A DNA stretch of 43,863 nt from an uncultured Desulfuromonadales bacterium. GTDB lineage: Bacteria; Desulfobacterota; Desulfuromonadia; Desulfuromonadales; Trichloromonadaceae. The notes beneath the pieces are model-generated. The model ran no database searches, had not been told where the DNA came from, and saw nothing but the letters and a program-made list of their open reading frames with translations. The stretch spans positions 1 to 43,863 of the forward strand of contig CALZIC010000120.1 of assembly GCA_945787285.1 (NCBI GenBank). The letters are read 5' to 3'. Made by a program: the position numbers and the translations under genes. Within the stretch, counting starts at the first letter, position 1, and every line of letters begins with the position of its first letter. Positions 4,217 through 32,628 of the stretch are shown here, in pieces.

Positions 4217-5119
4217 CTACTTAGTACAAGAATCAAGAAGAAGCCGCGCTTCTTCCCCATAATGCGGATCAAGTTCGGGATGATCGACGACTGTTTTCAG
4301 CATCGGAAGGCCCTCTTTCTTCCAGCCCAGTGCGAGATAGGCCTGGGCGATGCGAAAGACCCAGTACGGGTTGCCTGGCTCTTTACGACAGGCCCCTTTG
4401 AAGGCCTCCAGGGCTTTGGCGACCGATTTATCGTGGCGAAGCCAGAATTCGGCCAAAGCAATATTGGCCGAACCGGAACAACCCGACCCGGACAGAGCAC
4501 CCAGCTGCCTTTCTGCCCCCTCGAGATCCCCTTGCTGCTCAAGCAGGGAGGCCAAAAGAACCCGTATTTCGGGGGCCGCCGAGCCGGAGGCGATGGCGCG
4601 TTCACAGTGCGCAAGCGATTTGTCCGCCAGGCCGCGAGTAGCATAGAGTGCTGCCAGTTCGCCATGGCAATAGCCCGGATTTATTCCAAGATCAAGCATC
4701 CCCTGAAGACGCTTTTCAGCGGCATCGAGCTTCTTTTCAGCACGATCGAGCATCACAAGGCTTTCCAGGGCAGGAAAAAACGGGCCATTGGCCACCGCGG
4801 CCTTTTCCAGGTCACGACGGCCTGCAGCGGCTTTCTGCGTGCGTACCAGCAGCGAACCGCGCTCGAAGAAGTAAAGCTCGTCTCTCTCGCTGTTGTCGAC
4901 CCGGTCAAATGCCGCCAGCGCCTCCTTGTCGTTCCCGTCGTGGGCATGGAGAAAAGCGGTGCGGAAGGTCTCGCTTTTTTGTGCATAAAGGTCAGCGAGC
5001 TGTTCAGGGTATGTGGCAAGCAAAAGCTCAAGCCGCGATTCGGCATCCAGCCCCTCGGAGGCCCCTTCGTCAGCCACCTGCTCTGCTGAACACCCGGAGG
5101 CACAACACCCCGAAGCCAA
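4217..5119 (-). CDS. tetratricopeptide repeat protein, main body; appears frame-disrupted from its N-terminal part (5120-5433)
   Basis: 300-aa ORF with TPR-like helical repeats. It begins at TTG immediately where the coding-looking part of the overlapping ORF 4753..5433 stops making sense. Confidence 0.6.
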   Translation of the reverse strand: MASGCCASGCSAEQVADEGASEGLDAESRLELLLATYPEQLADLYAQKSETFRTAFLHAHDGNDKEALAAFDRVDNSERDELYFFERGSLLVRTQKAAAGRRDLEKAAVANGPFFPALESLVMLDRAEKKLDAAEKRLQGMLDLGINPGYCHGELAALYATRGLADKSLAHCERAIASGSAAPEIRVLLASLLEQQGDLEGAERQLGALSGSGCSGSANIALAEFWLRHDKSVAKALEAFKGACRKEPGNPYWVFRIAQAYLALGWKKEGLPMLKTVVDHPELDPHYGEEARLLLDSCTK

Positions 5120-15979: not shown

Positions 15980-16174
15980 ATGATTACCAAGGACATGACC
16001 ATCGGCGATGTCATGAGGGAGCACCCGGAAACGATTGCGGTTTTCAAGCGATTCGGCCTCAACTGCCATGACTGCCAGATCGCTGACATTGAAGAAGTCG
16101 AGCACGGTGCCGGGGTTCACCAGGTCGACATCGATCAGCTCCTTGGCGAGCTGAACAAAGCCATCGAAGAGTAA
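15980..16174 (+). CDS. DUF1858 domain small redox-disulfide-type protein
   Basis: MITKDMTIGDVMREHPETIAVFKRFGLNCHDCQIA...; taggagg RBS before ATG 15980. Confidence 0.65.
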   Translation: MITKDMTIGDVMREHPETIAVFKRFGLNCHDCQIADIEEVEHGAGVHQVDIDQLLGELNKAIEE

Positions 16175-17003
16175 CCCCGGGAGCCTGTAGGACTTGACGG
16201 ACCGTAACGAGAAATTGGATGTTCGAGACCAGATTTTCGAGAATTTGAGAGCGAATAGCAGGGCTATTTGTCGAAAATTGTCGAGGATACTCCATTTGCT
16301 CAAGCTGGGTGACCAATCGGTCCAAAGCATCGACCACCAGGGCCTCGAGTTGCGCCCCCTTTTCGGCGGTGGCCCGGGTCGGGTCGCCCCAAACCCCGCC
16401 AGGCCAGAAACGGCGCTTGTTTCTCACCAGAATGCCGCTCGGAAAGGACGGAAACTCCCGCCTCCCCTCCCCCTTTACCAGATGCGGGTGCGAGTTGAGA
16501 ATCCGTGAGGTTTCGATCTCGCCGGCGTGCGAATCGCCTTCGGTCTCGATGAGACCGCGCCCCTCCCTTGCCGCCAGCATGTACTCGGTCAAAACGGCGA
16601 TGCCGATATCTTCGAAGCGCTCAAGCAGTTCTTCCCCGGCGTCGATCAGGGCCGAGGTATGGGTCCCGCCGGCATGACCGGTGATCAAAACGAAATTGCG
16701 CAGCCCCTGGCGCCTCAGAGAGGTCACGATGTCGATGGCCAGAGCTCTGATCGTTGACGTGGTGATGCTGATGGTGCCGGGATGTTCGGCGGTGGACCGG
16801 CAGACCCCGTACGGAATCGGCGGGGCGATGAAGATCGGACGTTTCTCTGCGAGACGGCGGCCGACCTCCACGGCATGCAGGGTATCGGTCGAAAGGGGCA
16901 GATGATCGCCGTGCTGCTCGGTCGCCCCGAAGGGGATCAACACCGTGCGGGTCTTTTCGAGCCCATCGGCAAACTCGCACATGGTCATCTCTTCAATAAT
17001 CAT
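16059..17003 (-). CDS. creatininase (creatinine amidohydrolase) family protein; C-terminal ~35 aa are translated from the dispersed repeat
   Basis: Motifs EQHGDHLPLSTD, HAGGTHT, GHAGEIETS. The ORF has no stop until 16059, so it runs through repeat copy A and overlaps the convergent DUF1858 gene. Confidence 0.7.
   Translation of the reverse strand: MIIEEMTMCEFADGLEKTRTVLIPFGATEQHGDHLPLSTDTLHAVEVGRRLAEKRPIFIAPPIPYGVCRSTAEHPGTISITTSTIRALAIDIVTSLRRQGLRNFVLITGHAGGTHTSALIDAGEELLERFEDIGIAVLTEYMLAAREGRGLIETEGDSHAGEIETSRILNSHPHLVKGEGRREFPSFPSGILVRNKRRFWPGGVWGDPTRATAEKGAQLEALVVDALDRLVTQLEQMEYPRQFSTNSPAIRSQILENLVSNIQFLVTVRQVLQAPGVTLRWLCSARQGADRCRPGEPRHRARLLQCQRSGSHGS
16194..16289 (+). repeat. dispersed repeat copy A (~95 bp, about 90 percent identical to 25524-25618)
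   Basis: direct comparison: GACCGtAACGAGAAATTGGATGTTCGAGaCCAG...AATTTGAGAGCGAATAGCAGGGCTATTTGTCGAAAATTGTCGAGGATA. Confidence 0.85.
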
Positions 17004-17776: not shown

Positions 17777-18119
17777 GGTCCGACTCCCAGACGTTGACCT
17801 TTTCGACCGTGATATTGTCGCTGTTTAAGCGATCGGAAAGCTTATCAAAGAGAAACCGGGCGATATTTTCCGATGACGGACTGAGCTCCCGGAACGGTTC
17901 AAGATCGTTCAAATACTTGTGGTCGAGCAGATCGAGCATGGTGTTGGTTTCCTTTTTGAGGATCTTGAAATCGATCCCCAGGCCAGCCTTGTCCAACTCC
18001 CTGGCGGCAACCGTCACTTCAACCTTCCAGTTGTGCCCATGAAGATTTTCGCAGTCCCCCTGGTAATTCATCAGGTTGTGAGCTGCAGCAAAGTGCGTAT
18101 GAATTGTGAGACGATACAT
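17748..18119 (-). CDS. queD: 6-carboxy-5,6,7,8-tetrahydropterin synthase
   Basis: 123 aa; CENLHGHNWKVEV zinc-binding motif of PTPS/QueD. Confidence 0.9.
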   Translation of the reverse strand: MYRLTIHTHFAAAHNLMNYQGDCENLHGHNWKVEVTVAARELDKAGLGIDFKILKKETNTMLDLLDHKYLNDLEPFRELSPSSENIARFLFDKLSDRLNSDNITVEKVNVWESDHACASYSKD

Positions 18120-18150
18120 CTATAAACTCCTTAAAAGGGTAAAAAGCCAA

Positions 18151-18336
18151 TCAGTCGTACTGCTCTTCGGAAGGGGCGTCTTCTGCGGGAACACGATATT
18201 CCTCCTCCGCCCAGCGGCCAAGATCGATAAGCCGGCACTTCTCGGAACAGAATGGACGATGGGGGTTCCCTTCCCAGCTGACCCTTTCGCCGCAGCGGGG
18301 ACAGCGTACTTTTACCAGTTTTACGTTTCCTGCCAT
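18151..18336 (-). CDS. yacG: DNA gyrase inhibitor YacG (zinc-ribbon)
   Basis: 61 aa; CPRCGERVSWEGNPHRPFCSEKCRLIDLGRWAEEEY. Confidence 0.85.
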   Translation of the reverse strand: MAGNVKLVKVRCPRCGERVSWEGNPHRPFCSEKCRLIDLGRWAEEEYRVPAEDAPSEEQYD

Positions 18337-18416
18337 GAATCTACCTTGTTATTTCTGAATACAACTTTAGCGTACCCGGATTAGCAGGAAAAACCAACCC
18401 CTTGCAGACCCGGACA

Positions 18417-18462
18417 TGAAAAAAGCCCTGACACCGGAAGCATGAGGTCGGGGCTTCTATTT
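18417..18462. terminator. putative bidirectional terminator hairpin
   Basis: gaaaaaaGCCCTGAC-N15-GTCGGGGCttctatttt; A-run before and T-run after. Confidence 0.35.
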
Positions 18463-18793
18463 TATGAAGGAGTCGGCAGACGACCATCAACATAAAAGCT
18501 TAAAAAACAAACAGCGCGGAATATACCTTGAGGGAAGATCCAAGGCAAATGAAAAATCCTGTCCCCCGCTAAGGAATTAATTGGGGATGTATGCGTGTCG
18601 TAACCTTTCGGATGAATGGGGTCGTTATCAAAAGTGGACACCATAGAGGGGGCCGCCATCCGCAAGGCGAGCGAACCATTTTTGAACTATTTGTCAACTA
18701 TTTGCAGTATGACAAAGCTGTTTAACAAAGAAGCTGGACGCAGCTTTCAATTTACTCTAAGGAACGACTCTCCTTTTCCCCAGGCTCTTTTGA

Positions 18794-19114
18794 CTATTGG
18801 ACAGGGCCCTGTTGGCCACAGCGAGTGTCTGCGGCTTGGCCCAAACACTCGAAGCAGTTTCTCAGGGTGCAAAGCCCACAGGAGTGATACATATAAACAG
18901 GGACACCTTGTTTTTTGGCGCTATCAACGGCTTTGTTACGCGCCCCGTGCGAAACCTTGTTGGTGAAAAGAACTACCGCATCGGCGGCTTTAATGCTTTT
19001 GGCGATTTTTGAATTTTCAGTGGAATATATGGTGATTTGATGGCCGTGCTTTTTGGCTTCTCGGCGATAGTGCTGCGCCAGGCGATCCATCCCTCCGATC
19101 AATACTATACTCAT
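18794..19114 (-). CDS. DUF2325 domain protein
   Basis: 106 aa; MSIVLIGGMDRL...AADAVVLFTNKVSHGARNKAVDSAKKQGVPV pattern recalled for DUF2325. Confidence 0.55.
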   Translation of the reverse strand: MSIVLIGGMDRLAQHYRREAKKHGHQITIYSTENSKIAKSIKAADAVVLFTNKVSHGARNKAVDSAKKQGVPVYMYHSCGLCTLRNCFECLGQAADTRCGQQGPVQ

Positions 19115-19494
19115 ATTCCCTTCCTTCCCGTTAAGGTTAAACTCGATACCTAAATGAAAATGATTTTCACCTTCCCTGTCAACCGGGTATAGGACAAAGT
19201 CGGGTTCGACCTAAGCCAGGTGTTCCCTCCAAAAAACCTTTAGTTTTGCTTCCTTCTATATACTTTTGACGACGTCTTGGGAGACTCTCCGAAGGGATCT
19301 CTATTCAATTTCTCGGCACCCTTTTACAAATTATCTTCACCTGGGTACAAAGGTCACTGCATCTATCCGGAGGCAAATGGAAAGAGTCCCAGACAAGGTT
19401 TTTTTGTAATTGATGCATTTTTTTTGTTTTAGGGGTTGATTGTTTCTAAGTGTAACTGTATAAGTTTTTATATATAAACTTTAAAGGAGAAATT

Positions 19495-19932
19495 ATGTCC
19501 ACTTTACTTGAAATGGCTACCGACCTCGTCTCTGCACACGCTTCCACCTCAAAAATGACCAAGGAAGAACTTCTGGCTGAACTCAATGAGGTATACGGGG
19601 TTCTCCAGAAGATGGAGAAGGGTGAAGAGATTGTTACAGAGGGCGCAACCACTGAGGAAGAGGCTGGCCCTGCTGTTTCAATGCGAAAGGCGTTTGGAAA
19701 GAAGCAGGTATTCTGCATGATTTGCGGCAAAGGTTTTACGACTCTTGCTCGTCATCTCAACACTGCCCACGACATGAAGCCTGGAGAGTACAGAAAGCAG
19801 TTCGGTATCCCCAGAACCCAGTCTCTGGCTGCTAAAGACTACTCTGAAAGCAGACGCCAGATGGCTATTGAGAAAGATCTCGGCGCAGGGCTTGCCAAGG
19901 CCCGTGAAGCCAGAGCTAAAAAGAAAAAGTAA
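19495..19932 (+). CDS. MucR/Ros family transcriptional regulator (C2H2-type zinc finger)
   Basis: 145 aa; C-x2-C...H-x4-H zinc finger (FCMICGKGFTTLARHLNTAHDMKPGEYRKQFGIP) typical of Ros/MucR; aaaggag RBS; sits at the start of an AT-rich island. Confidence 0.8.
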   Translation: MSTLLEMATDLVSAHASTSKMTKEELLAELNEVYGVLQKMEKGEEIVTEGATTEEEAGPAVSMRKAFGKKQVFCMICGKGFTTLARHLNTAHDMKPGEYRKQFGIPRTQSLAAKDYSESRRQMAIEKDLGAGLAKAREARAKKKK

Positions 19933-20086
19933 TTCGTTTCTATTTGGAAACAATGGAAAGCCCCCTGGTCCTGATGGATTTGGGGGCTTTTTGTTTTTGG
20001 GTTGCCTGCAGTCTTTCAATTCTATCCATTGAAATTTTTTCAAGAATGGATAAAGTTAGTAAGATTTTTAAAACAGGAGGATCGGC

Positions 20087-20923
20087 CTTGAAATTTATAT
20101 TTTTAATAATTTTATGCCATTTGACTTTATGTTTTTCCGTTTCAGCCGAAACGTCTTTGTGGGTGGTAAATACGGACAATTCCGTCACATATATCGGAGG
20201 CACCAGTCATGTGCTTCGCCCCATTGATTATCCTTTGCCTCATGAATTTGAGGTGGCCTACGCAAACTCCGATTCTATCGTTTTGGAAGCTAATCCCAGC
20301 ACCTTTGCCAGTCCAGCAATTCAGCAACAACTCCTAAGGAGTTCTATTTACAATCTCCTAAAACGTTCAACCTCCTAAGGCAGTATTGCGAAAGTTCGGG
20401 TATTCCAGTTGCCAATTTAATTAAGTTCAAGCCTTCCATGGTAGCCATGGTATTAGTGGTCTTTGAGCTTCAGAAACTTGGCAGTGCCGAAAGTGGGGTG
20501 GATTTTCACTTCCACGCTAGAGCCACTACGGATAAAAAACTTATCGGAGAACTGGAAACGGCTGAGCAACAGCTGGGATTCCTCCTGTCAATGGGCGAAG
20601 GCAACGAGGACCAATTTATAAAGCATACGATTGCGGACCTAAAAAATACCAGGGAGTTTTTTGAAAATTTTATTTTGGCCTGGCGAAATGGAAATGAATC
20701 AGAACTGGAGAACCTTCTTATTACTGCAACAAAAGAGACCTCTCCGGATATCTACAAAACCCTTTTCAAGGACCGTAATGCCGCCTGGCTTCCCATGTTT
20801 GAAAAATACATCGAGTCACAAGAAACGGAGTTCATTTTAGTTGGTGTGGGCCATCTGGTGGGCGAAGACGGCCTGATCGAAACCTTGAGAACTCGCGGGT
20901 TTGATGTGCAAAAGATGAAATAA
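20087..20923 (+). pseudogene. TraB/GumN family protein gene disrupted by a 40-bp insertion (frame break about 20340-20379)
   Basis: N-terminal part in the frame of ORF 19944..20378 (signal peptide then SLWVVNTDNSVTYIGGTSHVLRPIDYPLP). C-terminal part in the frame of ORF 20438..20923, whose coding frame is open back to 20339. Removing 20340-20379 joins ...AIQQQLLR to QYCESSGIPVANLIKFKPSMVAMV... in one frame; the junctions carry a ctcctaagg direct repeat. Confidence 0.6.
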
Positions 20924-20979
20924 TATTTAACATTGTACTTATCAATGTCTGTTGAGCGCTTGCATATTGGTCTAATCCT

Positions 20980-21540
20980 ATGAAAGTACCATTTTTTCAC
21001 TACATTAGATTTTGGGCCTACAATTCCTTCCTCGCCTTTGGGACTGGTTTTGTCATAGGATACCTGTTTCAGAATTTCTTTTTCTTTTTGCTTTCCCCCA
21101 TTACATTTCCCTTCGCCTTTCTTTTTGTTTACCAATATTTCATAGCATCATTTTTCTGGGGTGATCGCAGGGGGGCTTTTGAGTTTTCCTACCTTGAAAG
21201 AGTTGCCTCTACAAATAAGTTCAATCCTGCTTTAGCCACCGTTTTCAAAGAGGTCAAGCAAGAGTACAAGTTGGGAGATCCTCAATCTGCTCTGCAGAAG
21301 CTTCAAAAGGCTGCAAGCTACTATTCATCCAGCTTTGCGGTTCAATTTAAGCTTGCCATTGCGTGTGAGAAACTTGGGCTGGGTGATGAGGCAATTACCG
21401 CATATAAAAACGCATTAGCGGTAGTGCCAAATAATGCACCCAAATTACTTCAACACGTCATAAGACAAATTGAGCATGTTCGCACTAAGGGGCCTCGCAG
21501 AAAGTCGAGTGCCCCAGGGTTGCAAATGGTAATTTATTGA
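20980..21540 (+). CDS. hypothetical membrane protein with C-terminal TPR-like segment
   Basis: 186 aa; hydrophobic N-terminus, AT-rich codon usage like the surrounding island; no recognised domain. Confidence 0.4.
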   Translation: MKVPFFHYIRFWAYNSFLAFGTGFVIGYLFQNFFFFLLSPITFPFAFLFVYQYFIASFFWGDRRGAFEFSYLERVASTNKFNPALATVFKEVKQEYKLGDPQSALQKLQKAASYYSSSFAVQFKLAIACEKLGLGDEAITAYKNALAVVPNNAPKLLQHVIRQIEHVRTKGPRRKSSAPGLQMVIY

Positions 21541-21602
21541 AAAACACCCCAGTGCCGGGGAATTCCTCAAAAGGCATATTTCCTCAACCACCAGGGAGAA
21601 TC

Positions 21603-21998
21603 ATGCAAGTATCTTATCCAACAATTCTAAGAAGATATATGTCAACTTTTATCGATGGGGCTTTCGTCGTCTCGACATTTATTGCGCTTTCATATGTATT
21701 TCAAGAGGATTCTCAACTGGAAAACAATATCCGAATTGCGGTATTTTTTACCATGTTCTTCATATATGAGCCAATATGCACAAGTCTGTTTTGTACTATG
21801 GGCCAAAGGCTTACCGGCATAAGGGTCAGGAAGTTCAACAGTAAAGACAGGATATCGATACCTGCCGCCTACTTACGCATAATTGTGAAGATTGTTCTGG
21901 GCTTTATCTCTCTCCTCACGATCCCTTTCACAAATGGCCGGAGAGCAATTCACGATTTTACGGTTAATTCTGTTGTTATAATGGAAAAAAAAGACTGA
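21603..21998 (+). CDS. RDD family membrane protein
   Basis: RDD-domain pattern (RRYMSTFIDGAFV ... GQRLTGIRV ... RAIHDFTVNSVVI). Start at MQVSYPTIL with gggag RBS; ORF-track start 21537 is probably too far upstream. Confidence 0.6.
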   Translation: MQVSYPTILRRYMSTFIDGAFVVSTFIALSYVFQEDSQLENNIRIAVFFTMFFIYEPICTSLFCTMGQRLTGIRVRKFNSKDRISIPAAYLRIIVKIVLGFISLLTIPFTNGRRAIHDFTVNSVVIMEKKD

Positions 21999-22092
21999 CT
22001 ACTGCCCGTGAGAGTACCCGTACTAAAGAGTCCTGAGGACCCGCATTCTGCCCTGCCGGTGCTGCGTAACGGTTGAAAAGGTCTCCTGATAA

Positions 22093-23161: not shown

Positions 23162-24395
23162 TCACTCTGACGCCATCTTCACCAGTCTCGGGTCGAACCG
23201 GGCCACCGTTTCCACCAGATCGGTCTGGGCCGCCATGACCTCATCGATATCCTTGTAGGCCATCGGCACCTCGTCCAGTCCGGCGGAGAGCAGGGTCACT
23301 CCGCGCTCATCGAGAAAAGCGCGTGCCTGCTTCCAGGTGAAATTCTGCCTGGCAGCCTTGCGGCTCATTTTTCGACCGGCACCATGGGAGGCGGAGCAGA
23401 GAGAGTCGGGGTGGCCCTTGCCGCGAACCACGTACCCTGACGTCCCCATGGAACCCGGGATGATGCCGAGAACGCCCATTCCTGCCGGGGTCGCCCCTTT
23501 TCGGTGAACCACCACCTGCTCACCGTTGTGAACCTCATTCCAGGCGAAGTTGTGATGATTCTCCACATCGAGAAGGACCTCGGCCCCGAGATGGTCGGCG
23601 ATGTCACGGTGGATCAGGGCATGATTGGCCGCTGAGTAAAGGCCCATCAGTTCCATGGCATTCCAGTACCCCTGCCCTTCTTCGCTCTGCAGATCGAGCC
23701 AGGCCAGCGGCTGAAGCTGGTTCGGGAGCTCGGGATGCAGCTCACGAGCAACACGGCTGTAGTGTTCAGCGATCGAACCGCCGGTCCCCCTGCTGCCGCT
23801 GTGGCTGAGCAGGGCCAGGTAAGTGCCGGCCTCCAGCCCCAGGTCAGACTGCAAAAGGGTCAGTTCACCAAACTCTACAAAGTGGTTGCCGCTGCCGCTG
23901 GTGCCCAGCTGCTTCCAGGCCTTGTCCTTTAGGCCGCGGGTCAGGCGGGTTATGCTCCAATCTGCATCCATGACATCGTGCTCTTTGCGGTGTGAAAAGG
24001 TGGCCCCGACACCAAAAGAGGTCGATCGGCAGCCCGTACCCCTGATGCGCATCGGGCATCAGCGCGCCGGAGACCGAAACCGGCAACCTGCAGGCGTTTT
24101 CCATCTGCTCTACCGCACTCTGTTCAAGGTCGGTCCCCCAGCGGCAATAGGGAGCAGGATCCTGCCGATGATCGAAGCGGGCCCGGAACTCCTTGACCTC
24201 CTGGTAGGTGAGCGCAAAGGAGCCGAACAGCTCATGCTCAAGATAGTCCTGCGGATTATCAACGACCGCGGACATCATCGCCCGGATCGACTGTTTATCC
24301 TGGCCCGCCCTGGCCGCCTGAGCGGTGGCCTGCTGAGCCAGTTTCATCAGGGAGCCCTTGGGGACCCCGAGATTTGTCAATTCTCTGTTTTTCAT
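23162..24395 (-). pseudogene. rtcB: RNA-splicing ligase RtcB, split into two overlapping ORFs by a frameshift at an A4/T4 run (about 24014-24020)
   Basis: ORF 23865..24395 carries the N-terminal part ending MPDAHQGYGLPI. ORF 23162..24052 carries the rest: GSGNHF, HHNFAWNE, RKGATPAGMGVLGIIPGSMGTSGYVVRGKG, SHGAGRKMSR, MAYKDIDEVMAAQTDLVE. The frames switch right after the metal-binding PDAHQGYG motif. Confidence 0.85.
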
Positions 24396-25462
24396 TGTTG
24401 ATCTCCTTCCTTGCCCGTGATCCGGATCTCCCAGACCTTAGGCGCAACCTTCACCATGTCCACCCAGACCTTAGGCGCAACCTTCACCATGTCCACCTCG
24501 ATATCCAGGAACTCTTTGAGTACTTCGATATTGGTCGTGGTATGGCGACTGGGCGCCAGGGTCCGAAATGCCCCGCCACCGGCCAGGGCCATCGGCAGCA
24601 GCAGCTGGTCGGCCAGGTGCTGCCCCACCGGGACCCCTGCGGCCAGATAGTCCTGAACCTGCTTGACGGTCTGGCTCGCCACCTTTTCGGCCCGCACACG
24701 CCATTCGCCGAAACCGGTGAAGATCTCGGTCAGGTTTTCGCTGGCCACCTCAAGGGTGAGGATATTGCCCGGACCTTGCGATTCAGCGACTTCTTCCACC
24801 TGCAGAGATTCCGCTGGCCAGGAGAGCTTGTTGCGCACCACTCGGATTTCACGCTCGCCGATGCTACGTGGCAGCCTGGCGACCATGGCACTGGCCCGAC
24901 GCCCGACGATATCGCCCCGTTCGAGCAGGCTGATCCTCGAGAAACGGGACACCGGTTCAATATGAACGAAAAACCTTCCGCCACCGGCCGGGTAAAAACC
25001 TGGCCGTTCCAGGGTTGCGGACACCTTGGGCCCCATGCGCTGCAGCAGGGGGAGAAAGGACCGGGCCAGAAAATCGAATGGGGGCGCATGAGGGTTATGG
25101 GTTCCCCCTTCCAGAACCAGTTCCGAAGCCCCTTCCGCCAGGCAAAGGGCCGGCAGAACAGTCTGCAGCACCAGGGTGCAGCTCCCGGCCGTGCCTATGG
25201 AGAAATGATACTGCCCCGCCTCGATGGCCTTGGGAATAAAGACCAGGTCTTGAGAACCGATCCGATTCCCTTCAACCTCGGCAGCACCGACCTCCACTGC
25301 GGCATTCACCGCGGTAAGGTGTTGCCTCATCAGCCCGGGCTTGTTGCGCCGAGCGCGGATTTTTTCGATTCGAAATGGTTTTCCGGTCACCAGGGAGAGG
25401 GCCAGCGAGCTGCGCAGAATCTGTCCGCCTCCTTCGCCTTGGGACCCGTCAATGGTAATCAT
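24392..25462 (-). CDS. rtcA: RNA 3'-terminal phosphate cyclase
   Basis: 356 aa; MITIDGSQGEGGGQILRSSLALSLVTGKPFRI N-terminus and RtcA-wide similarity; 4-bp overlap with rtcB start. Contains an in-frame 33-bp tandem duplication near the 3' end (24432-24497). Confidence 0.9.
   Translation of the reverse strand: MITIDGSQGEGGGQILRSSLALSLVTGKPFRIEKIRARRNKPGLMRQHLTAVNAAVEVGAAEVEGNRIGSQDLVFIPKAIEAGQYHFSIGTAGSCTLVLQTVLPALCLAEGASELVLEGGTHNPHAPPFDFLARSFLPLLQRMGPKVSATLERPGFYPAGGGRFFVHIEPVSRFSRISLLERGDIVGRRASAMVARLPRSIGEREIRVVRNKLSWPAESLQVEEVAESQGPGNILTLEVASENLTEIFTGFGEWRVRAEKVASQTVKQVQDYLAAGVPVGQHLADQLLLPMALAGGGAFRTLAPSRHTTTNIEVLKEFLDIEVDMVKVAPKVWVDMVKVAPKVWEIRITGKEGDQQ
24432..24497 (-). repeat. 33-bp perfect tandem duplication (x2) inside rtcA 3' end, in frame (VDMVKVAPKVW x2)
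   Basis: cagaccttaggcgcaaccttcaccatgtccacc repeated twice in direct sequence. Confidence 0.9.
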
Positions 25463-25523
25463 GGGTTGACTCCTTGCATTTCAGTATTCATGGAATGAGG
25501 CTTACCCAGGAGGCTGTCGGGCT

Positions 25524-25690
25524 TGCCGGACCGAAACGAGAAATTGGATGTTCGAGGCCAGTTTTTCTTGAATTTGAGAGCGAATAGCAGGGCTATTTGT
25601 CGAAAATTGTCGAGGATATGGGCCGATCAGCCTATTTCGGGCTATTTGTCGAAAATTGTCGAGGATATGGGCCGATCAGCCGATTTCGCA
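25524..25690 (+). repeat. dispersed repeat copy B with internal 49-bp tandem duplication (25591-25639 and 25640-25688)
   Basis: the first ~95 bp match 16194-16289; the unit ggctatttgtcgaaaattgtcgaggatatgggccgatcagccNatttcg is repeated twice in tandem with 1 mismatch. Confidence 0.85.
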
Positions 25691-25732
25691 GTCGGTTTCT
25701 GGTAAGTCCGAGAGCCTCCTAGCATACAGCGG

Positions 25733-26839
25733 TCAAAGAAGATTGACCACCCGCTCGGCAAGACCTTTTTCGCCAAGAACGACATTCATTTTGGAACTGC
25801 CGGCCACCTTCTCCAGCACTTCGAGTTCGCGCAGTCGCATGAGGGTCGGGTTGTTCTCCAGCAGGCGGGCCGTATTGGCCTGGCTGCGCATGGCGGCCGT
25901 CTCTTCGCGGCGCACGATGAGGTTGGCCTCCGCGGCCTTGCGTGCCTGGATGACCTGGTTGAGCAGGTCTTTCATCTCCCCCGGCAGGATCAGATCACGG
26001 ATGCCGAGGCGGATGATTTCTATACCGAAACTGCCTGAGCGCTGGCGCAAATTCCCCTCGAGTTCGCCAGCCACCCGGTCCTTTTCACTGAGCAGGGCAT
26101 CGAGGCTGCAAGTTCCGATGATCTCCCGCAGGGCCAGCTGGGCCTCGCGGTAAAGCGCCTGCTCGATGTTTTCAACGGCCTTCACCGCCCGGTGCGGGTC
26201 GGTAACCCGGTAGACGGCCTGGGCGTTGAGACGCAGGGTGACGTTGTCTGCGGTCATGATCTCCTGGCCCGAGATGTCGAGGACCGTCTCACGCAGGTCG
26301 ACCTGCTGAATCCGCAGCCGTCCGGCATTCTTCCAGAACATGTAGCGCCCCGGACCGAAGGTCTTTACGTATTCTCCGTCTTTGAAGAAAACCGCGGCAA
26401 AACCATCTTCGACAACAACACTCTCCAATTTTTCATCGGCCCCCGTCGACAAAAGAATTGCGCTCATCTCCTTGTGCTCAAACCGCACCTGACGTGCATC
26501 AACGATTTCAATCTTGATATCGCGAAGTCCTGTCCAAAGGGCATAGATCCCAGGGCCAACAACCTTGGCAAAACGCCCTTCGATCCAGACCAGGGCTCGC
26601 TGGCTATCCTTAAGGTCGAGCACCACGGCCTCTTCCCCGAGAACGCCCGCCTTGACAATCAGATCAAGCTTGTCGTGCACCAGCCAGGGATCACGCTGGG
26701 AGACTACATCGACCCGGATTTTGTTCAACGGATCGGTAAACCAGTGACGACCGGTGCCCAGAAGACCCTCGAACTCCTTATCTTTGAACAACAGACCCTT
26801 TTCGTGTGAGCGGACTTTTACGCTGCCGATTCCAATCAT
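25733..26839 (-). CDS. SPFH/Band 7 domain protein (stomatin/prohibitin-like) with C-terminal coiled coil
   Basis: SPFH-like core with coiled-coil tail (ARKAAEANLIVRREETAAMRSQANTARLL). Start at MIGIGSVKV (ATG 26839) with ggaggagaaggag RBS. Confidence 0.75.
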   Translation of the reverse strand: MIGIGSVKVRSHEKGLLFKDKEFEGLLGTGRHWFTDPLNKIRVDVVSQRDPWLVHDKLDLIVKAGVLGEEAVVLDLKDSQRALVWIEGRFAKVVGPGIYALWTGLRDIKIEIVDARQVRFEHKEMSAILLSTGADEKLESVVVEDGFAAVFFKDGEYVKTFGPGRYMFWKNAGRLRIQQVDLRETVLDISGQEIMTADNVTLRLNAQAVYRVTDPHRAVKAVENIEQALYREAQLALREIIGTCSLDALLSEKDRVAGELEGNLRQRSGSFGIEIIRLGIRDLILPGEMKDLLNQVIQARKAAEANLIVRREETAAMRSQANTARLLENNPTLMRLRELEVLEKVAGSSKMNVVLGEKGLAERVVNLL

Positions 26840-27036
26840 CTCCTTCTCCTCCTGTTGTCTCCATCCACCCTGGAAATAGGTGGCCCTCGGGGGGCGAGAC
26901 TTCCTCACGTTAGCCACATCGCCGATGCGGAGTGTCGTTTAAGAATATGCGCCCGGTTGTTTTCAGCAGGGGTCGCGGCCATCGGTTCGACTTTTGTTGC
27001 CGCCGAAGGCCGGGTGGCTCTGATCGCTGCCGTCTG

Positions 27037-27050
27037 CTACCGGTCTGCCC
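27037..27050 (-). promoter_or_regulatory. weak candidate sigma54 -24/-12 element (GGCAG-N7-AGCA) upstream of the SPFH gene
   Basis: the reverse complement reads tGGGCAGaccggtAGCAg with correct GG-N10-GC spacing but 2 mismatches to TGGCAC-N5-TTGCA; speculative. Confidence 0.2.
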
Positions 27051-27193
27051 AAACGGAATCCACGCACTGCATAGCATCTGACCGATGTTGTCCTCGACCG
27101 GACCGGGTCCAATCGATTCGGCTGACGGGAAGCCTCTCCCCCCTCAGGCCGGGTTGGTGACCGCCTGCGCGGTCAAGACGGGTTAATAGCCCG

Positions 27194-27264
27194 TTGTTGG
27201 TGCAGGACTCGAACCTGCGACTCCCGTGGGGTACACGGTGCTCTACCGACTGAGCTAACCAGAG
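27194..27264 (-). pseudogene. tRNA-like element / probable degenerate tRNA (intact D-arm and T-arm; 5-nt anticodon loop; acceptor stem only 4 of 7 bp)
   Basis: minus strand reads CTCTGGT-TA-GCTC-AGTCGGTA-GAGC-A-CCGTG-TACCC-CACGG-GAGTC-GCAGG-TTCGAGT-CCTGC-ACCAACA-A. Canonical GCTCAGTCGGTAGAGC D-arm and GGTTCGAGTCC T-arm. Anticodon loop has 5 nt instead of 7. No CCA. Confidence 0.5.
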
Positions 27265-27478
27265 ACTGCTACCGGCCTTCGTTAGAACCCATTTCGGAAC
27301 ACACAGCTCTGACCGCATCGTGCGTAGCGCTGTGAGCCGATGGCCCGGCGGTATCAGCCGCTTGTGTCTTTGGATATTTCAATGGTTGTGCCAAAGGAAT
27401 TCCAAAACCCTGACAATCTCATACTGGCATGTATTTACACTATTTTTACGGTTTAAAGAACAGCTCGTGGATGTTTGC

Positions 27479-27508
27479 TTGACATAACCATTCGGAATTT
27501 TCTATAAA
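27479..27508 (+). promoter_or_regulatory. sigma70-type promoter for rtcR (TTGACA-18 bp-TATAAA)
   Basis: TTGACA 27479-27484, TATAAA 27503-27508, 28 bp before the rtcR ATG. Confidence 0.45.
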
Positions 27509-27535
27509 TGCCTATACTTTTCTATAGGATTTTAT

Positions 27536-29146
27536 ATGAAAAAATCAGTCGCCATCGGCCTGCTCGGACCGGTTCTGGATAACGGCAAAGGCGCTAAGCG
27601 CTGGGAGCGCTGGCGCCCCTCGGTCGCACTCTGTCAACACGAGGAGCTGCTCGTTGACCGTTTCGTCCTGCTCTACCAGCGGCGCTACGCCAGCCTTCTG
27701 GAACGCATTGTCGAAGACATTCGCCAGGTCTCCCCGGAAACGGAAGTCGTCCCTCAGCTCATGGAGTTCGACGACCCGTGGGATTTCGAAAACGTCTTTG
27801 GAGCCCTGCACGACTTCGCCCGTGAATATCCGTTTGATCCCGACCAGGAGGACTACCTGGTACATATCACGACAGGCACCCATGTGGCCCAGATCTGCCT
27901 GTTTCTGCTGACCGAGGCGCATTATTTCCCGGCCCGCCTGATCCAGACCAGCCCCTCGCGCAAAGCGGACCAGCTTGCCTCGGGCACCTATTCCATCATC
28001 GACCTCGACCTTTCGCGCTACGACCGCATTGCCACCCGTTTCAGCCAGGAACAGCGGGATGATATCTCGTTTCTCAAATCAGGCATTGAAACCCGCAATG
28101 CCCGATTCAACCATTTGATCGCGCAGATCGAGCAGGTGGCGATCCGGTCGGTGGACCCGATTTTGATTACCGGCCCAACAGGTGCAGGCAAGTCAAAACT
28201 GGCCCGACGGATATTCGAACTGAAAAAGGCGCGGCGCCAAATCCCAGGGAACTTCGTCGAGGTCAATTGCGCCACCCTGCGTGGCGACGCCGCCATGTCC
28301 GCCCTCTTCGGCCATCGCCGCGGGGCGTTCACCGGCGCTTTGCAGGACCGTCAGGGGCTGCTGCGTGCTGCCGACGGCGGGATTCTCTTTCTCGATGAAG
28401 TGGGGGAGTTGGGACGGGATGAGCAGACCATGCTGCTGCGCGCCGTCGAGGAGAAGCGTTTTATGCCCCTGGGCTCGGATGCTGAAACAGAGAGCGATTT
28501 CCAACTTCTATGCGGTACCAATCGGGACCTTTACCAGGATGTGGACAAGGGGCGCTTCCGTGAAGACCTGCTGGCCCGGATAAACCTCTGGACCTTCGCT
28601 CTGCCGGGGCTGGCCGATCGCCCCGAGGATATCGAACCCAATCTCGATTACGAGCTCGACCGGTTCACGAGCCGCACCGGTGCCCGCATCACCATCAACA
28701 AAGAGGCGCGCCAGCATCTGCTCCGTTTCGCCACCTCCGCCGAGGCCACCTGGCCAGCCAATTTCCGCGATCTCAACGGCGCGGTCACGCGCATGGCCAC
28801 CCTCGCCCCGACCGGCCGCATCACCACCGAAACCGTAAAGGAAGAGGTTGCGCGTCTTCACCATGCCTGGCGGTCGCGAGGTGGAAATATAAAGGAGGAA
28901 ATTCTTCTGGAAGTACTCGGGCAGGGTGGGATTGAAAAACTCGACCTGTTCGACCGGGCCCAACTGGCCGAGGTGTTGCGCGTCTGCCGCGCCTCAAAAA
29001 ACCTTTCGGAGGCGGGCCGCACCCTGTTTGCCGTGTCGCGCCAGGAGAAAAAGCAGGCCAACGACGCCGACCGACTGCGCAAGTATCTCGCCCGGTTTGA
29101 CCTGAACTGGGAAAGCGTCCGAAGCACGGGGTCCACACCTCATTAA
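27536..29146 (+). CDS. rtcR: sigma54-dependent transcriptional regulator RtcR (N-terminal CARF domain, AAA+ sigma54-interaction domain)
   Basis: 536 aa; collinear with E. coli RtcR as recalled (MKKSVAIGLLGPVLDNGKGAKRWERWRPSVALCQHEEL..., DYLVHITTGTHVAQICLFLL, ARLIQTSPSRK, GPTGAGKS Walker A, GAFTGA, FREDLLARINLWTF). Confidence 0.9.
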   Translation: MKKSVAIGLLGPVLDNGKGAKRWERWRPSVALCQHEELLVDRFVLLYQRRYASLLERIVEDIRQVSPETEVVPQLMEFDDPWDFENVFGALHDFAREYPFDPDQEDYLVHITTGTHVAQICLFLLTEAHYFPARLIQTSPSRKADQLASGTYSIIDLDLSRYDRIATRFSQEQRDDISFLKSGIETRNARFNHLIAQIEQVAIRSVDPILITGPTGAGKSKLARRIFELKKARRQIPGNFVEVNCATLRGDAAMSALFGHRRGAFTGALQDRQGLLRAADGGILFLDEVGELGRDEQTMLLRAVEEKRFMPLGSDAETESDFQLLCGTNRDLYQDVDKGRFREDLLARINLWTFALPGLADRPEDIEPNLDYELDRFTSRTGARITINKEARQHLLRFATSAEATWPANFRDLNGAVTRMATLAPTGRITTETVKEEVARLHHAWRSRGGNIKEEILLEVLGQGGIEKLDLFDRAQLAEVLRVCRASKNLSEAGRTLFAVSRQEKKQANDADRLRKYLARFDLNWESVRSTGSTPH

Positions 29147-29206: not shown

Positions 29207-29896
29207 ATGCTCAAAGTGATCTTCGCCATATTTATCCTGCTGACGAGCCCAGCCTCCCTCCTTTCTGCCGAGGAGGGAAGCATATGCTATGGGACGACCA
29301 GCAAAGGGCGACTGGAGGGAGGGGTTTCTTTTCCGACATCCGGCAACAACTATAAAAGCTACAGCACTCTGGGCAACCTGCTTGGCCGGACGTATGTTCA
29401 CAGCAGCGTTCAGAAAGTCGTTCTCAATGCTTTCACAACCCTTGAGAAAAGCTATCCCGATAGAGTCTTTATGTACGGTGAAACGGGCTGGAAAAGCGGC
29501 GGTCGATTCAAACCGCACAAAACACATCAGAACGGGCTTTCCGTTGACTTTATGGTTCCGGTATTGAACAGCGACAAACAGTCAGTTTATCTGCCGACCA
29601 GTCCGTTCAATAAATTCGGTTATGACATCGAATTCAATGATCGAGGACAATACGAAAATTACACCATCGATTTTGAGGCAATAGCCGCCCACCTCGTCGA
29701 ACTTCACAAAGAAGCAAGGAGCTCCAGTATTGATATCTGGCGGGTTATTTTTGCCCCCAAGCTACAGCCACAGCTGTTCAGCACCAAGCATGGTACCTAT
29801 CTGAAAAAGAATCTGGAATTTTCCAAACGGCCATCCTGGGTTCGCCACGATGACCATTACCATGTTGACTTCAAGCTCCCATGTGAAAAACTCTAG
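29207..29896 (+). CDS. mepA: penicillin-insensitive murein endopeptidase (peptidase M74, MepA-like) with signal peptide
   Basis: 229 aa; signal peptide; LAS-type zinc motifs HKTHQNGLSVDF and HDDHYHVDF matching MepA's HASHQNGLDVD and HRAHMHVRL. Confidence 0.7.
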   Translation: MLKVIFAIFILLTSPASLLSAEEGSICYGTTSKGRLEGGVSFPTSGNNYKSYSTLGNLLGRTYVHSSVQKVVLNAFTTLEKSYPDRVFMYGETGWKSGGRFKPHKTHQNGLSVDFMVPVLNSDKQSVYLPTSPFNKFGYDIEFNDRGQYENYTIDFEAIAAHLVELHKEARSSSIDIWRVIFAPKLQPQLFSTKHGTYLKKNLEFSKRPSWVRHDDHYHVDFKLPCEKL

Positions 29897-29986
29897 TGGC
29901 CTGTTTGGTTAATCGCGTCGATTAATTCTGAGGCATTTTTGACCCTGTCAAGGCGCACCGACGCAGCCCTAGCTGAGCTTAAGTCA
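29892..29986 (+). repeat. ~95-bp direct repeat R1 (about 85 percent identical to R2 at 31545-31640), immediately after the mepA stop
   Basis: ctagtggcctgtttggttaatcgcgtcgattaattctgaggcatttttgaccctgtcaaggcgcaccgacgcagccctagctgagcttaagtca aligned against R2. Confidence 0.8.
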
Positions 29987-30053
29987 TTTCCGGCTGAGGC
30001 TACCCCCCCCAAAAAAAAATTACAAATGGGTTTATAACCCTAAATAAGGTTCT

Positions 30054-30142
30054 TACCACAGAGGCACAGAGCCACAGAGCAAGGCAGAGATTTTGCCTTT
30101 ATTAATCGATTTTTCCTCTGTGACTCAGTGTCTCTGTGGTTG
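30054..30142. repeat. long imperfect inverted repeat built from tandem SCACAGAG octamers (arms ~26 bp, 3 mismatches, ~30-nt spacer)
   Basis: accacagaggcacagagccacagagc ... (rc) accacagagacactgagtcacagagg; preceded by a C8A9 homopolymer tract at 30003-30019. Confidence 0.7.
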
Positions 30143-30177
30143 CTTTGATATTTTCGGCCTCAACCTTCTTTTGGGTT

Positions 30178-30220
30178 ATAAAACCGAAAACAAAAGCCAC
30201 AGGAGTTATCTGTGGCTTTT
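30178..30220 (-). terminator. rho-independent terminator downstream of the 402-aa ORF
   Basis: AAAGCCACAGgagttatCTGTGGCTTT hairpin followed on the minus strand by ttgttttcggtttt. Confidence 0.6.
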
Positions 30221-30262: not shown

Positions 30263-31471
30263 TTAAACCTTAACCGCACGCTCCCGAAGATACTCAACCT
30301 GTTCTGGTAAAAGCGGATCCATCACTTTGTACCTGGCAGGTATTTCATCCTCCACCGCTGAAATGTAGTCAGGACCCAGACAAGCGTTAAACACCGACCA
30401 GCCCACATTACCTAGAATTTCCTCATTTTCATGATCATAAAGAGAGACTTCGTCAGTCAACGGCAAATATGTAGGAATGTTCAAAGTGTAAACCGAAAAG
30501 GTCATGATTCCAGCCTCGCTATTAGTCGCCTGGAATTTCGAAACAAAAACCTCCTCTCCTACTTGCGCCTGCAGATGCTCTTTCTGCTCATCATATTGCG
30601 TAAAAGCTTCTTTCACACGTTGGAGGGACGCAGCTTGTCGACCAGGTTCACCCTCAAGCGGCAACCATTGCTTCCAAAGCCCATCGTTACTTTTTTGCCA
30701 GAAACTTTGGCTAAAGGGCCTGTGATTTTCAGAGAACTTTTCCCCAATCGCGATCATTCTCAATAAAGTTTCATCCGTCCCCTGGTCTGTGACCAAGCAA
30801 ATAGAATGGGACGGTGCAAAAAATATCGGATTCCCATCAAAAGGAATACGGACATTATCGTCAGCCGCAACGATCCGCGCAAAATCATAGTCATCTTGAT
30901 ATGTTGACATCCAAATGTGCGGCTCCACCTGTTCCCACTGATCTAACCCAGTGGCTCTTACCAAGGCAGCACCAGCTATCCGAAGGCCTTCTTCTTTTGT
31001 AATCCCAGCTTTTTCTATATCTTCATTTTTGACGGTGGATATGGATTCTTCGTTGTCGGAAATCAGCTCCAATAACGCCTCGCCAATTCTAAATAGTGAT
31101 AAATCTGTCTGCTCATACCCTTTTGAGGCCATCATTTTTTTTCTCAAAGAGATTTCAAAATCGGTGCGTACTCGTATTGCAAGTGAGTTCATGAAATCGT
31201 CTGGGTCAAACACACGGGGAGAGAGCAGTTCGTTAAGAAGCCGCTCAATAGATGGAGCTCTCTCTTTTCTTCCAAGCTCTTTCATTTTCATGAAAATGTT
31301 GCCCAGGAAAATGCTGGTGGGGGCCTTGTCCCGACCTCTCTCCTCGACCGACAGAGTCACTTCGCGGGCCTCAGGCTTATATTCAATCACCAATGAAGGA
31401 TCAATATACTTGGCAATACGACCAATATCTTTGGCTAGCTTCTTCTCGGTATATCGAAACATTTTAGTCAT
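30263..31471 (-). CDS. hypothetical protein, 402 aa, no recognised domain; low-GC gene flanked by direct repeats R1/R2
   Basis: long ORF with coherent codon usage, terminator downstream, AT-rich relative to flanks; no family recognised from sequence. Confidence 0.6.
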   Translation of the reverse strand: MTKMFRYTEKKLAKDIGRIAKYIDPSLVIEYKPEAREVTLSVEERGRDKAPTSIFLGNIFMKMKELGRKERAPSIERLLNELLSPRVFDPDDFMNSLAIRVRTDFEISLRKKMMASKGYEQTDLSLFRIGEALLELISDNEESISTVKNEDIEKAGITKEEGLRIAGAALVRATGLDQWEQVEPHIWMSTYQDDYDFARIVAADDNVRIPFDGNPIFFAPSHSICLVTDQGTDETLLRMIAIGEKFSENHRPFSQSFWQKSNDGLWKQWLPLEGEPGRQAASLQRVKEAFTQYDEQKEHLQAQVGEEVFVSKFQATNSEAGIMTFSVYTLNIPTYLPLTDEVSLYDHENEEILGNVGWSVFNACLGPDYISAVEDEIPARYKVMDPLLPEQVEYLRERAVKV

Positions 31472-31544: not shown

Positions 31545-31640
31545 GCTAGTGGGCTGTTTGGTTATTCGTGTCAGTTAATTCTGAGTCATTTTGGTTGCTG
31601 TCAAGGCGCGCCGACGCAGGCCTAGCCTTGCGTTAAGTCA
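31545..31640 (+). repeat. ~95-bp direct repeat R2 (pair of R1)
   Basis: ctagtgggctgtttggttattcgtgtcagttaattctgagtcattttggttgctgtcaaggcgcgccgacgcaggcctagccttgcgttaagtca. Confidence 0.8.
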
Positions 31641-31961: not shown

Positions 31962-32321
31962 TTATTTCACTTCGGCCGCAGGTGTCATGATCGCGGCGTA
32001 CTCAGCGGCATCCAGGTTACCGTCCTGATTAGCGTCGGCTGATTCAAAACTCAGCTGCAGCGCATCACTGGCGCCAGCTTCTTCCTTGCTGATAGTGCTG
32101 TTCTGGTCAACATCCAGGGCTTCAAAGATCGCATTCCGCTCCTCAGCCACGCCCTGCTCCTCAGCCACGCCCTGCTCCTCAGCCACGTTCTGCTCCTCAG
32201 CCACGTTCTGCTCCTCAGCCACGTTCTGCTCCTTAGCCACACCCTGCTCTTGGGTTGGGGCACAAGCGGCACAAGTAAGCATCAGGGCAGCAAGAAGAGT
32301 CAAAATTACATTTTTGTTCAT
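31962..32321 (-). CDS. lipoprotein with seven 6-aa tandem repeats (VAEEQN) and two EF-hand-like Ca-binding loops
   Basis: Start at MNKNVILTLLAALMLTCAACA (lipobox LTC, aaggag RBS). Then 7 x VA(K/E)E(Q/R)(N/G) encoded by 18-bp tandem repeats at about 32115-32240. Then DVDQNSTISKEE and DANQDGNLDAAE EF-hand loops. ORF-track start 32546 is likely too far upstream. Confidence 0.65.
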   Translation of the reverse strand: MNKNVILTLLAALMLTCAACAPTQEQGVAKEQNVAEEQNVAEEQNVAEEQGVAEEQGVAEERNAIFEALDVDQNSTISKEEAGASDALQLSFESADANQDGNLDAAEYAAIMTPAAEVK

Positions 32322-32628
32322 TTTTTTAGCTCCTTCTAAAGGGTCTGTTGAAATGCCATATTGGCTGTCTATTCTACCCTTCAGCAACCGCTGTGCCATG
32401 ATAGTTTTATCTACAAAAAACGATGCCTTACATTGACCCGCCAGAATTTCTGCCTTGCTTGGGGAAAATTTCTGTTCGCCGGCTGCGACAGATAGAAGGG
32501 GTCGGCCATAAAAGGGGCGCAAAAACAACAAGTTCGTTTGTCTCAAAATAGCGACCGCTCATGGTAGTGCATGAATCTTCAAGGGGAATGTGATCCGGAT
32601 TACGATCCCTATAATTTTCACTTTTTCC

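Follow-up and report, generated by a model that had tools for sequence, protein, structure and literature searches.

A 162-bp palindromic repeat beside a creatininase-family gene and within an RNA-repair operon of a Desulfuromonadales bacterium is most likely a miniature inverted-repeat transposable element

The DNA analyzed here, referred to below as the window, is the stretch of 43,863 nucleotides that makes up contig CALZIC010000120.1 of the assembly GCA_945787285.1, from an uncultured Desulfuromonadales bacterium, and it carries a palindromic repeat at two loci (Table 1). At the first locus, a creatininase-family gene located downstream of queE-like and queD-like genes is convergent with a small DUF1858 gene, and the stop codon of the DUF1858 gene lies 5 nt before copy A of the repeat. 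At the second locus, a sigma-54-like promoter, the only good site of this type in the locus, is followed by a conserved leader, a gene for an SPFH/band-7 protein (band7), copy B of the repeat, rtcA and rtcB, in that order, with rtcR transcribed divergently. The gene order rtcR / band7-rtcA-rtcB is also found in L059, L060 and L064 (L numbers designate the loci fetched for comparison). Taken as a whole, the best explanation of the repeat, including both copies in the window, is that it is a 162-bp non-coding miniature transposable element with inverted repeats (MITE), and we put the probability of this reading at roughly 0.9.

Table 1. Coordinates of the two repeat copies and the features around them in the window (TIR, terminal inverted repeat; ORF, open reading frame).
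Feature	Position	Strand	Remark
DUF1858 gene	15980..16174	+	Pfam PF08984; protein identical in L007
Aberrant ORF extension, 76 codons + stop	16059..16289	-	from translation; runs through copy A, antisense to DUF1858
MITE copy A	16180..16289	+	left 110 bp only; profile positions 1-110 (nhmmer)
Creatininase-family gene proper, residues 1-238	16290..17003	-	Pfam PF02633, E 1.8e-61
rtcA	24392..25462	-	Pfam RTC + RTC_insert; transcriptionally downstream of copy B
Left flanking dinucleotide CA, preceded by C	25507..25508	.	read as degenerate TA target duplication
MITE copy B	25509..25719	+	full length + 49-bp internal tandem duplication, 211 bp total
Left TIR of copy B, GGAGGCTGTCGGGCTTGCC	25509..25527	+	
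49-bp tandem unit 1	25590..25638	+	repeat search
49-bp tandem unit 2	25639..25687	+	98% identical to unit 1
Right TIR of copy B, GGAGGCTCTCGGACTTACC on - strand	25701..25719	-	
Right flanking dinucleotide TA, followed by G	25720..25721	.	CTAG regenerated, at 25719
SPFH/band-7 gene	25733..26917	-	Pfam Band_7; upstream of copy B, same operon
Sigma-54-like promoter TGGCACAACCATTGAA	27393-27378	-	only good sigma-54-like site in locus
rtcR	27536-29146	+	divergent from sigma-54-like promoter

An earlier note on this DNA, made from the sequence alone, had described two copies about 90% identical and 9 kb apart, and had listed a MITE among several candidate identities. In the repeat search of the window, the pair appeared as a direct repeat of 114 nt with 91% identity (16176-16289 and 25505-25618); the pair is thus real, but the similarity starts ~18 nt further left than position 16194, where the note had placed it. 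Within the element proper (16180-16289 compared to 25509-25618), 101 of 110 bases are identical, and, when up to 3 mismatches are allowed, the window contains three occurrences of the invariant core 19-mer TTGTCGAAAATTGTCGAGG, relative to 0.02 expected from shuffled sequence. Exact 20/21-mers from this core were searched against one genome per species and then against JGI metagenomes, which returned copies in three Desulfuromonadales metagenome-assembled genomes (MAGs), one MAG labelled Pseudodesulfovibrio and two metagenome contigs. The exact matches at L005 and L010-L012 were set aside as chance matches unrelated to the element, those at L005, L010 and L011 being in apparent coding sequence. 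A profile built from 9 full copies and searched with nhmmer brought the family to 10 full and 2 truncated copies on eight contigs, so that further copies, for which the note had proposed to look, are present on seven contigs of Desulfuromonadales MAGs and metagenomes besides the window.

The full copies align end to end with a pairwise identity of 84-95%, and define a 162-bp unit, GGAGGCTGTCGGACTTGACGG ... GGTTCATGTTAAGCCCGACAGCCTCC, of 50% G+C. Terminal inverted repeats of ~12-19 bp bound the unit (GGAGGCTGTCGG...CCGACAGCCTCC); compared in inverted orientation, the two ends of the consensus agree at all of the first 12 positions and at 16 of the first 19. Because the profile matches the reverse strand of every copy (E ~1e-11), the whole element is an imperfect palindrome. 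In RNA fold predictions an intact copy forms a single long hairpin (-64.4 kcal/mol, z = -6.3), and copy B folds at -66.6 kcal/mol (z = -4.1). Neither window copy had been delimited correctly in the note: the two are present, but copy A is truncated, and copy B continues to 25719, where its right TIR had gone unrecognized.

Copies are dispersed. Two are found in this 44-kb contig, two in L009 and at least four in the MAG CALZIZ01 (L001, L002 and two in L006), and the neighbouring genes differ from copy to copy and are unrelated housekeeping genes, among them genes for a DbpA helicase, a GNAT protein, a 5'-3' exonuclease and an E2 acyltransferase. Copies differ by a 1-nt deletion in L002 and a 2-nt insertion in L006, and the truncated copy besides copy A is at L006 1068-1187. 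There are also sister elements of 145 bp and ~60 bp, which have the same termini and different interiors. One of these, a 145-bp sister MITE at L006 2906-3050 with termini GGAGGCTGTCCGA and a different interior, abuts the full copy at L006 3051-3212 and replaces the last bases of that copy, which suggests that the target regenerated at one element's end served as the insertion site for another. The 162-bp consensus is well below the limit of about 500 bp that applies to MITEs and has no coding capacity; it combines terminal inverted repeats, a flanking target duplication, several copies in unrelated places and polymorphism of the occupied sites. A full-text literature search with the terminus and core sequences gave unrelated primer matches only, and Rfam 15, run over the whole window at gathering thresholds, assigned no family to either copy; permissive E-values over both copies gave only noise (14 bits, E ~5). 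The family is a previously undescribed one from Desulfuromonadales, of a kind that is itself already well known.

The flanks of the family read C-TA|element|TA-G. Of 10 copies, 4 have a perfect TA/TA pair and five others have a single deviating base in one of the two dinucleotides (CA, TG or GA), in keeping with the target-site duplications for which a check had been proposed. The left dinucleotide is preceded by C in 10/10 copies and the right one is followed by G in 6/9, the right end of one L006 copy being disrupted by a second element. CTAG is ~9-fold depleted in the window (19 observed vs 167 expected), and landing sites of this type are therefore scarce. The preferred target of IS630 is TA within CTAG, according to Tenzen & Ohtsubo (1991) as it appears in the reference list of PMC2170065. 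IS630-family elements duplicate TA and need little beyond their terminal repeats; in the case of ISY100, transposition requires only ~24-30 bp of each end. The flanks of the MITE match a target of the IS630 type, and it is this target signature on which an assignment to IS630 would be made. A transposase encoded elsewhere would recognize the termini, move the MITE by cut-and-paste, and insert it at TA, preferably within CTAG, with duplication of the TA; TA insertion with TA duplication is the signature of the IS630/Tc1-mariner type. The best-supported function of the repeat is that of a selfish, non-autonomous transposon.

Candidate partners were sought in several collections. A blastn search against the PLSDB plasmids found no paired termini, and a scan of IMG/VR with TAGGAGGCTGTCGGR gave 42 viral matches, all of them single and without pairs, as is consistent with chance. 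Matches of 20 nt in Azospirillum and Hymenobacter were likewise dismissed as chance, being isolated or inside a gene. The window itself contains a complete IS4-like insertion sequence of 1,314 bp (32629-33942), with perfect 17-bp termini CACTACTGTCCGGTTAA and a transposase gene at 32712-33929 (DUF4372 + DDE_Tnp_1). This element was rejected as a partner of the MITE since its termini differ (CA... vs GG...); its only resemblance to the second palindromic repeat family of the window (described below) is an internal CTGTCCG heptamer.

The history of copy A can be read by comparison to L007 (GCA_945787475.1), a near-identical strain in which the flanks are 100% identical over ~500 nt and residues 1-238 of the creatininase-family protein are 100% identical to P0001. 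Exactly at the copy-A site, L007 has an intact 162-bp element. Alignment of the two strains leaves a clean 57-bp gap in the window, AGGACCGATCAGCC...GACAGCCTCCTACCT, and the missing 57 bp hold the right terminus, the flanking TA, the last sense codon and the TAG stop of the creatininase-family gene; of the element itself, the right 52 bp are deleted. In L007 the stop codon takes its TA from the flank and its G from the first base of the element, and the protein has 239 aa. Because of this composition, the insertion is taken to have hit the TA of the TAG stop codon, the stop being regenerated since the element starts with G; a later 57-bp deletion would then have removed the right terminus together with the stop codon, and so have created a read-through ORF of 314 aa. 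The gene fusion is therefore a product of the secondary deletion (or of an assembly error), and not of the insertion itself. The earlier note had rightly seen that the creatininase-family ORF reads through copy A, is fused to the repeat at its 3' end and overlaps the DUF1858 gene, but it attributed the fusion to the repeat directly and gave the tail as ~35 aa, where the extension has 76 aa, split into ~37 codons in the repeat and ~38 antisense to DUF1858. The whole ORF (16059-17003, - strand) encodes 314 aa vs 239 aa before the deletion; most of the close relatives listed have a creatininase-family protein of 239-242 aa, and the Pfam domain ends at residue 230.

The copy-A site is also found empty. 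In L063, whose creatininase belongs to the same 90%-identity cluster, a 37-bp spacer without the element occupies the site, and in L055 (83% identity) the spacer is 5 bp, the MAG of L055 carrying the element elsewhere. A separate observation concerns the two filled strains: between window 16180-16289 and L007 3201-3310 there are 4 differences (one in a flanking dinucleotide and three within the 110 shared MITE bases), compared to 0 differences in ~500 nt of the flanking genes. That the differences are confined to this stretch suggests either gene conversion between copies or a mixing of reads in metagenome assembly.

Copy B occupies the spacer that separates the SPFH/band-7 gene from rtcA. In the nhmmer search it is covered twice over its interior, with profile positions 1-131 at 25509-25639 and positions 82-162 at 25639-25719; the 49-bp tandem duplication that had been noted before is borne out, with coordinates that differ by one base, a matter of phase only. 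The 49-bp stretch is single in all other full copies, and at ~90% identity to the others copy B is a typical family member. Copy B would thus be an intact insertion in this spacer, with the 49-bp duplication gained later by slippage. At the equivalent site of L059 (RtcA 86% identical), the left flank CCGCTGTATGC-TG is in common and no element follows. Exact look-ups with the RtcA, SPFH and RtcR proteins of the window returned no other strain. A scan of copy B found neither a sigma-70 nor a sigma-54 consensus, and its hairpin is not followed by a T-run of the terminator type. Because copy B lacks a sigma-70 consensus and a terminator-type T-run, it is probably co-transcribed with the operon, and would form a long hairpin in the mRNA, where it might also affect expression.

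The spacer between band7 and rtcA shows a further peculiarity. In L060 and L064 this spacer contains hairpins of ~60 bp, with stems GGGGCCTGTCGG and GGAGCCCGTCGG of the terminus type, and in the window, L060 and L064 the hairpins start exactly 13 nt after the band7 stop codon. Their interiors are unrelated, and the differences among their stems are compensatory changes. Mini-hairpins like these are also seen at other places, such as L002 5742-5794. Since the closest relative, L059, has no such stem and copy B is a typical member of its family, these spacer hairpins are more simply explained by a rare CTAG-type site having been used repeatedly. The alternative that they are a retained functional RNA of RtcR-controlled operons in Desulfuromonadales, and no passive junk, for which MITE termini were recruited, seems improbable; if it were true, the hairpin could be, for example, an RNase III processing site or an attenuation site that uncouples the leader RNA and the SPFH gene from rtcAB.

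Several observations weigh against the identification as a MITE or limit what it covers. The flank pairs are imperfect in 6 of 10 copies, and, CTAG being palindromic, a 2-bp duplication is not fully separable from one of 3 or 4 bp, which some IS5-family groups make. No transposase gene with matching termini was found in the window, PLSDB, IMG/VR or the fetched Desulfuromonadales and metagenome loci, which were checked for terminus pairs. Searches of very large collections, seeded with exact 20/21-mers, yielded only about a dozen copies. Three pairs of the stem show compensatory changes, leaving some room for selection on the hairpin, and the contig has signs of damage in its frameshifted rtcB, its split traB-like gene and a perfect 33-bp duplication in rtcA.

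The repeat can also be read as a structured regulatory RNA, either a small RNA (sRNA) gene, as the earlier note had allowed, or a cis-acting leader, with a hairpin that functions for example in processing or attenuation in the band7-rtcA spacer. In favour of this, the hairpin is predicted to be very stable, the compensatory changes in the three pairs are double (RNAalifold), and a related stem with a different interior is placed 13 nt after the band7 stop in three operons. The same RNAalifold analysis, however, gave an unfavourable covariation term (+1.18), with ~30 pairs broken in at least one copy; the copies stand in varied, unrelated gene contexts, two of them are truncated (window copy A and L006 1068-1187), and no Rfam family matches. 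The TA flanks and the filled and empty sites point to transposition, and at the spacer itself the closest relative, L059, has no such stem; the scarcity of CTAG can account for repeated use of the same TA. We regard a regulatory RNA as improbable, and the sRNA suggestion is not supported, given the missing Rfam match and the unrelated contexts. Even less probable is that the repeat encodes a small protein, or that its TGTCGA-N4-TGTCGA sites form an operator array for a host regulator. The 162-bp consensus has one - frame that stays open from end to end and a + frame open over 44 codons, but the 1-nt deletion in L002, the 2-nt insertion in L006 and the truncated copies are hard to reconcile with a coding function, and no conserved start codon or ribosome-binding site was seen by eye in the alignment; the note's preference for a non-coding element is upheld by these indels and truncations. 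Nearly all copies keep the direct hexamer repeat unchanged, but the hexamers in the right arm pair with TCGAGA..TTTTCGAGAA in the left arm of the palindrome, so that their conservation is explained without a regulator, and the protein-binding array that had been offered as an option is not supported. The genes that adjoin the copies are, moreover, functionally unrelated.

That the two copies are direct and 9,329 bp apart, with a low-GC block encoding MucR, TraB-like, TPR and RDD proteins between them, could suggest that they are attL/attR-like borders of a 9.3-kb island (16.2-25.6 kb) that includes the low-GC segment at 18-22 kb. Pfam annotation of the interval reveals no integrase or recombinase, however, and it holds core genes whose synteny with the outer flank is kept on both sides in relatives without the repeat, for queD-queE-creatininase-DUF1858 in L063 and L056 and for band7-rtcA-rtcB in L059, L060 and L064. 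The element occurs singly elsewhere, and copy B is bounded by inverted termini of its own, as copy A once was, judging from L007; there is hardly any likelihood left for such an island. A more restricted doubt accepts the repeat as real and takes the 57-bp deletion with its gene fusion and the 49-bp duplication as artefacts of metagenome assembly. The window is a whole MAG contig with the damaged genes mentioned above, and it differs from L007 only in the stretch of the element, as if reads of different copies had been mixed. The junctions of the deletion and the duplication are nevertheless clean and lie in otherwise colinear sequence, and such rearrangements are common in palindromic repeats. 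An assembly origin for these two changes is unlikely, yet it carries a chance that should be kept in mind. The MITE identification, as suggested among the candidates of the earlier note, is carried by the inverted termini, the TA flanks, the dispersed copies, the filled compared to the empty sites and the truncated copies.

Among known systems, MITEs derived from IS630/Tc1-mariner elements are alike in that they are small and non-coding and have terminal inverted repeats and TA flanks with a preference for CTAG, and the short end requirement of ISY100 fits MITE families that have common termini and different interiors. The likeness ends at the transposase, as no IS630-family transposase with matching termini was found, and a derivation from this family would be drawn from the flanks. 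Repetitive extragenic palindromic (REP) sequences are G+C-rich stem-loops of 20-40 nt mobilised by RAYT (Y1) transposases, and are not known to have terminal inverted repeats or target duplications. REP/BIME sequences are intergenic, palindromic and multicopy like the present element, but the latter has 162 bp, well-defined ends and flanking TA. In Neisseria, Correia elements (CREE) have inverted termini, a TA duplication and the potential to form a hairpin over their whole length, and are often located beside or between genes and co-transcribed with them; their functional features include the creation of promoters, an IHF site and processing by RNase III. Their termini are presumably different in sequence from those of the MITE described here, and their host belongs to a different phylum. 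As regards the creation of promoters, the sigma-70 consensus scan of copy B was empty. The size class is similar, Correia elements being ~104-157 bp in length (PMC3184786). From the same bacterial order comes the MITE Chunjie of Geobacter uraniireducens Rf4, which was inserted inside an operon without destroying the operon structure and has many partial copies (PMC3184786, PMC10969869). Chunjie is described as A+T-rich and 178-235 bp long, with 21-bp inverted repeats and 9-bp direct repeats (PMC3184786), and this description sets it apart from the present element (162 bp, 50% G+C, termini of ~12-19 bp and 2-bp TA flanks), which we do not count as a member.

Other features of the window were noted in the course of the analysis. 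Between the sigma-54-like promoter and the SPFH/band-7 gene (26918-27535, - strand) there is a non-coding leader of ~450 nt, which shows strong conservation across three lineages in which the identity of the RtcA proteins is only 72-86% (L059 2975-3679, L060 2876-3579). It contains a tRNA-like module at 27193-27264, which scores 38-43 bits with the Rfam tRNA model, and for which ARAGORN reports odd anticodons (ACC, 'aa') or nothing. The Salmonella rsr-yrlBA-rtcBA operon encodes tRNA-mimicking YrlA Y RNAs (PMC4201824, PMC7790460), which the module resembles. No Ro60/Rsr gene is present among the annotated genes of the window or in the gene tables of L059, L060 and L064, and the operon has an SPFH protein; the leader may serve the RNA-repair system as a distinct RNA partner or sensor. 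Downstream in the operon, rtcB (23162-24395, - strand) is broken by frameshifts, such that, by comparison to L059, where the protein is intact and 459 aa long, residues 1-124 and residues 172-459 are encoded in different frames, and the perfect 33-bp tandem duplication in rtcA (24430-24495) gives a protein of 356 aa vs 345 aa in relatives. Taken with the MITE in the spacer, these defects may mean that the rtc operon is in decay, or else that there are assembly errors in the MAG contig.

Two further repeats lie beyond rtcR. An 81-nt direct repeat (29893-29973 and 31546-31626, 85% identity), each copy of which starts with CTAG and ends with CTAGC, contributes 4 of the 19 CTAG sites of the window; its inverted termini, of the type G(T/G)GGC(C)TG..., are weak, and its two copies bracket a 402-aa ORF without a Pfam match (30263-31471, - strand) in a low-GC stretch. 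This repeat may be one more small element that targets TA/CTAG. A second palindromic repeat family is found at 30028-30185 (ACCACAGAGGCACAGAG...CTCTGTGTCTCTGTGGT, with outer arms GGGTTTATAACC/GGTTATAAAACC), and a relative of it is located in the band7-rtcA spacer of L059 (~4815-4925), where the window has the MITE. About 6-7 tandem 18-nt units (CTGCTCCTCAGCCACGCC or similar) at 32116-32259 encode a hexapeptide repeat in an EF-hand ORF (31962-32546, - strand). The block at 18000-22000 has a G+C content of 42-49% vs ~58% elsewhere and includes genes for a DUF2325 protein, a Ros/MucR regulator, a TPR protein and an RDD protein, as well as a TraB/PrgY-family gene split into ORFs 19944-20378 and 20438-20923. 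This block was probably acquired horizontally.

For annotation, these results mean that the repeat should be masked as a mobile element and be called neither a gene nor an sRNA, and that the 314-aa 'creatininase' ORF is a secondary artefact of the decay of a MITE, the real protein having 239 aa. A CTAG-targeting element can hit a TAG stop codon and regenerate it, and the RtcR-regulated RNA-repair operon becomes a further case of an operon with a MITE within it. The current understanding of MITEs is unchanged by a finding that is real but ordinary. For uncultured Desulfuromonadales, the family is a marker of recent genome flux, and its termini can be used as probes for an active transposase.

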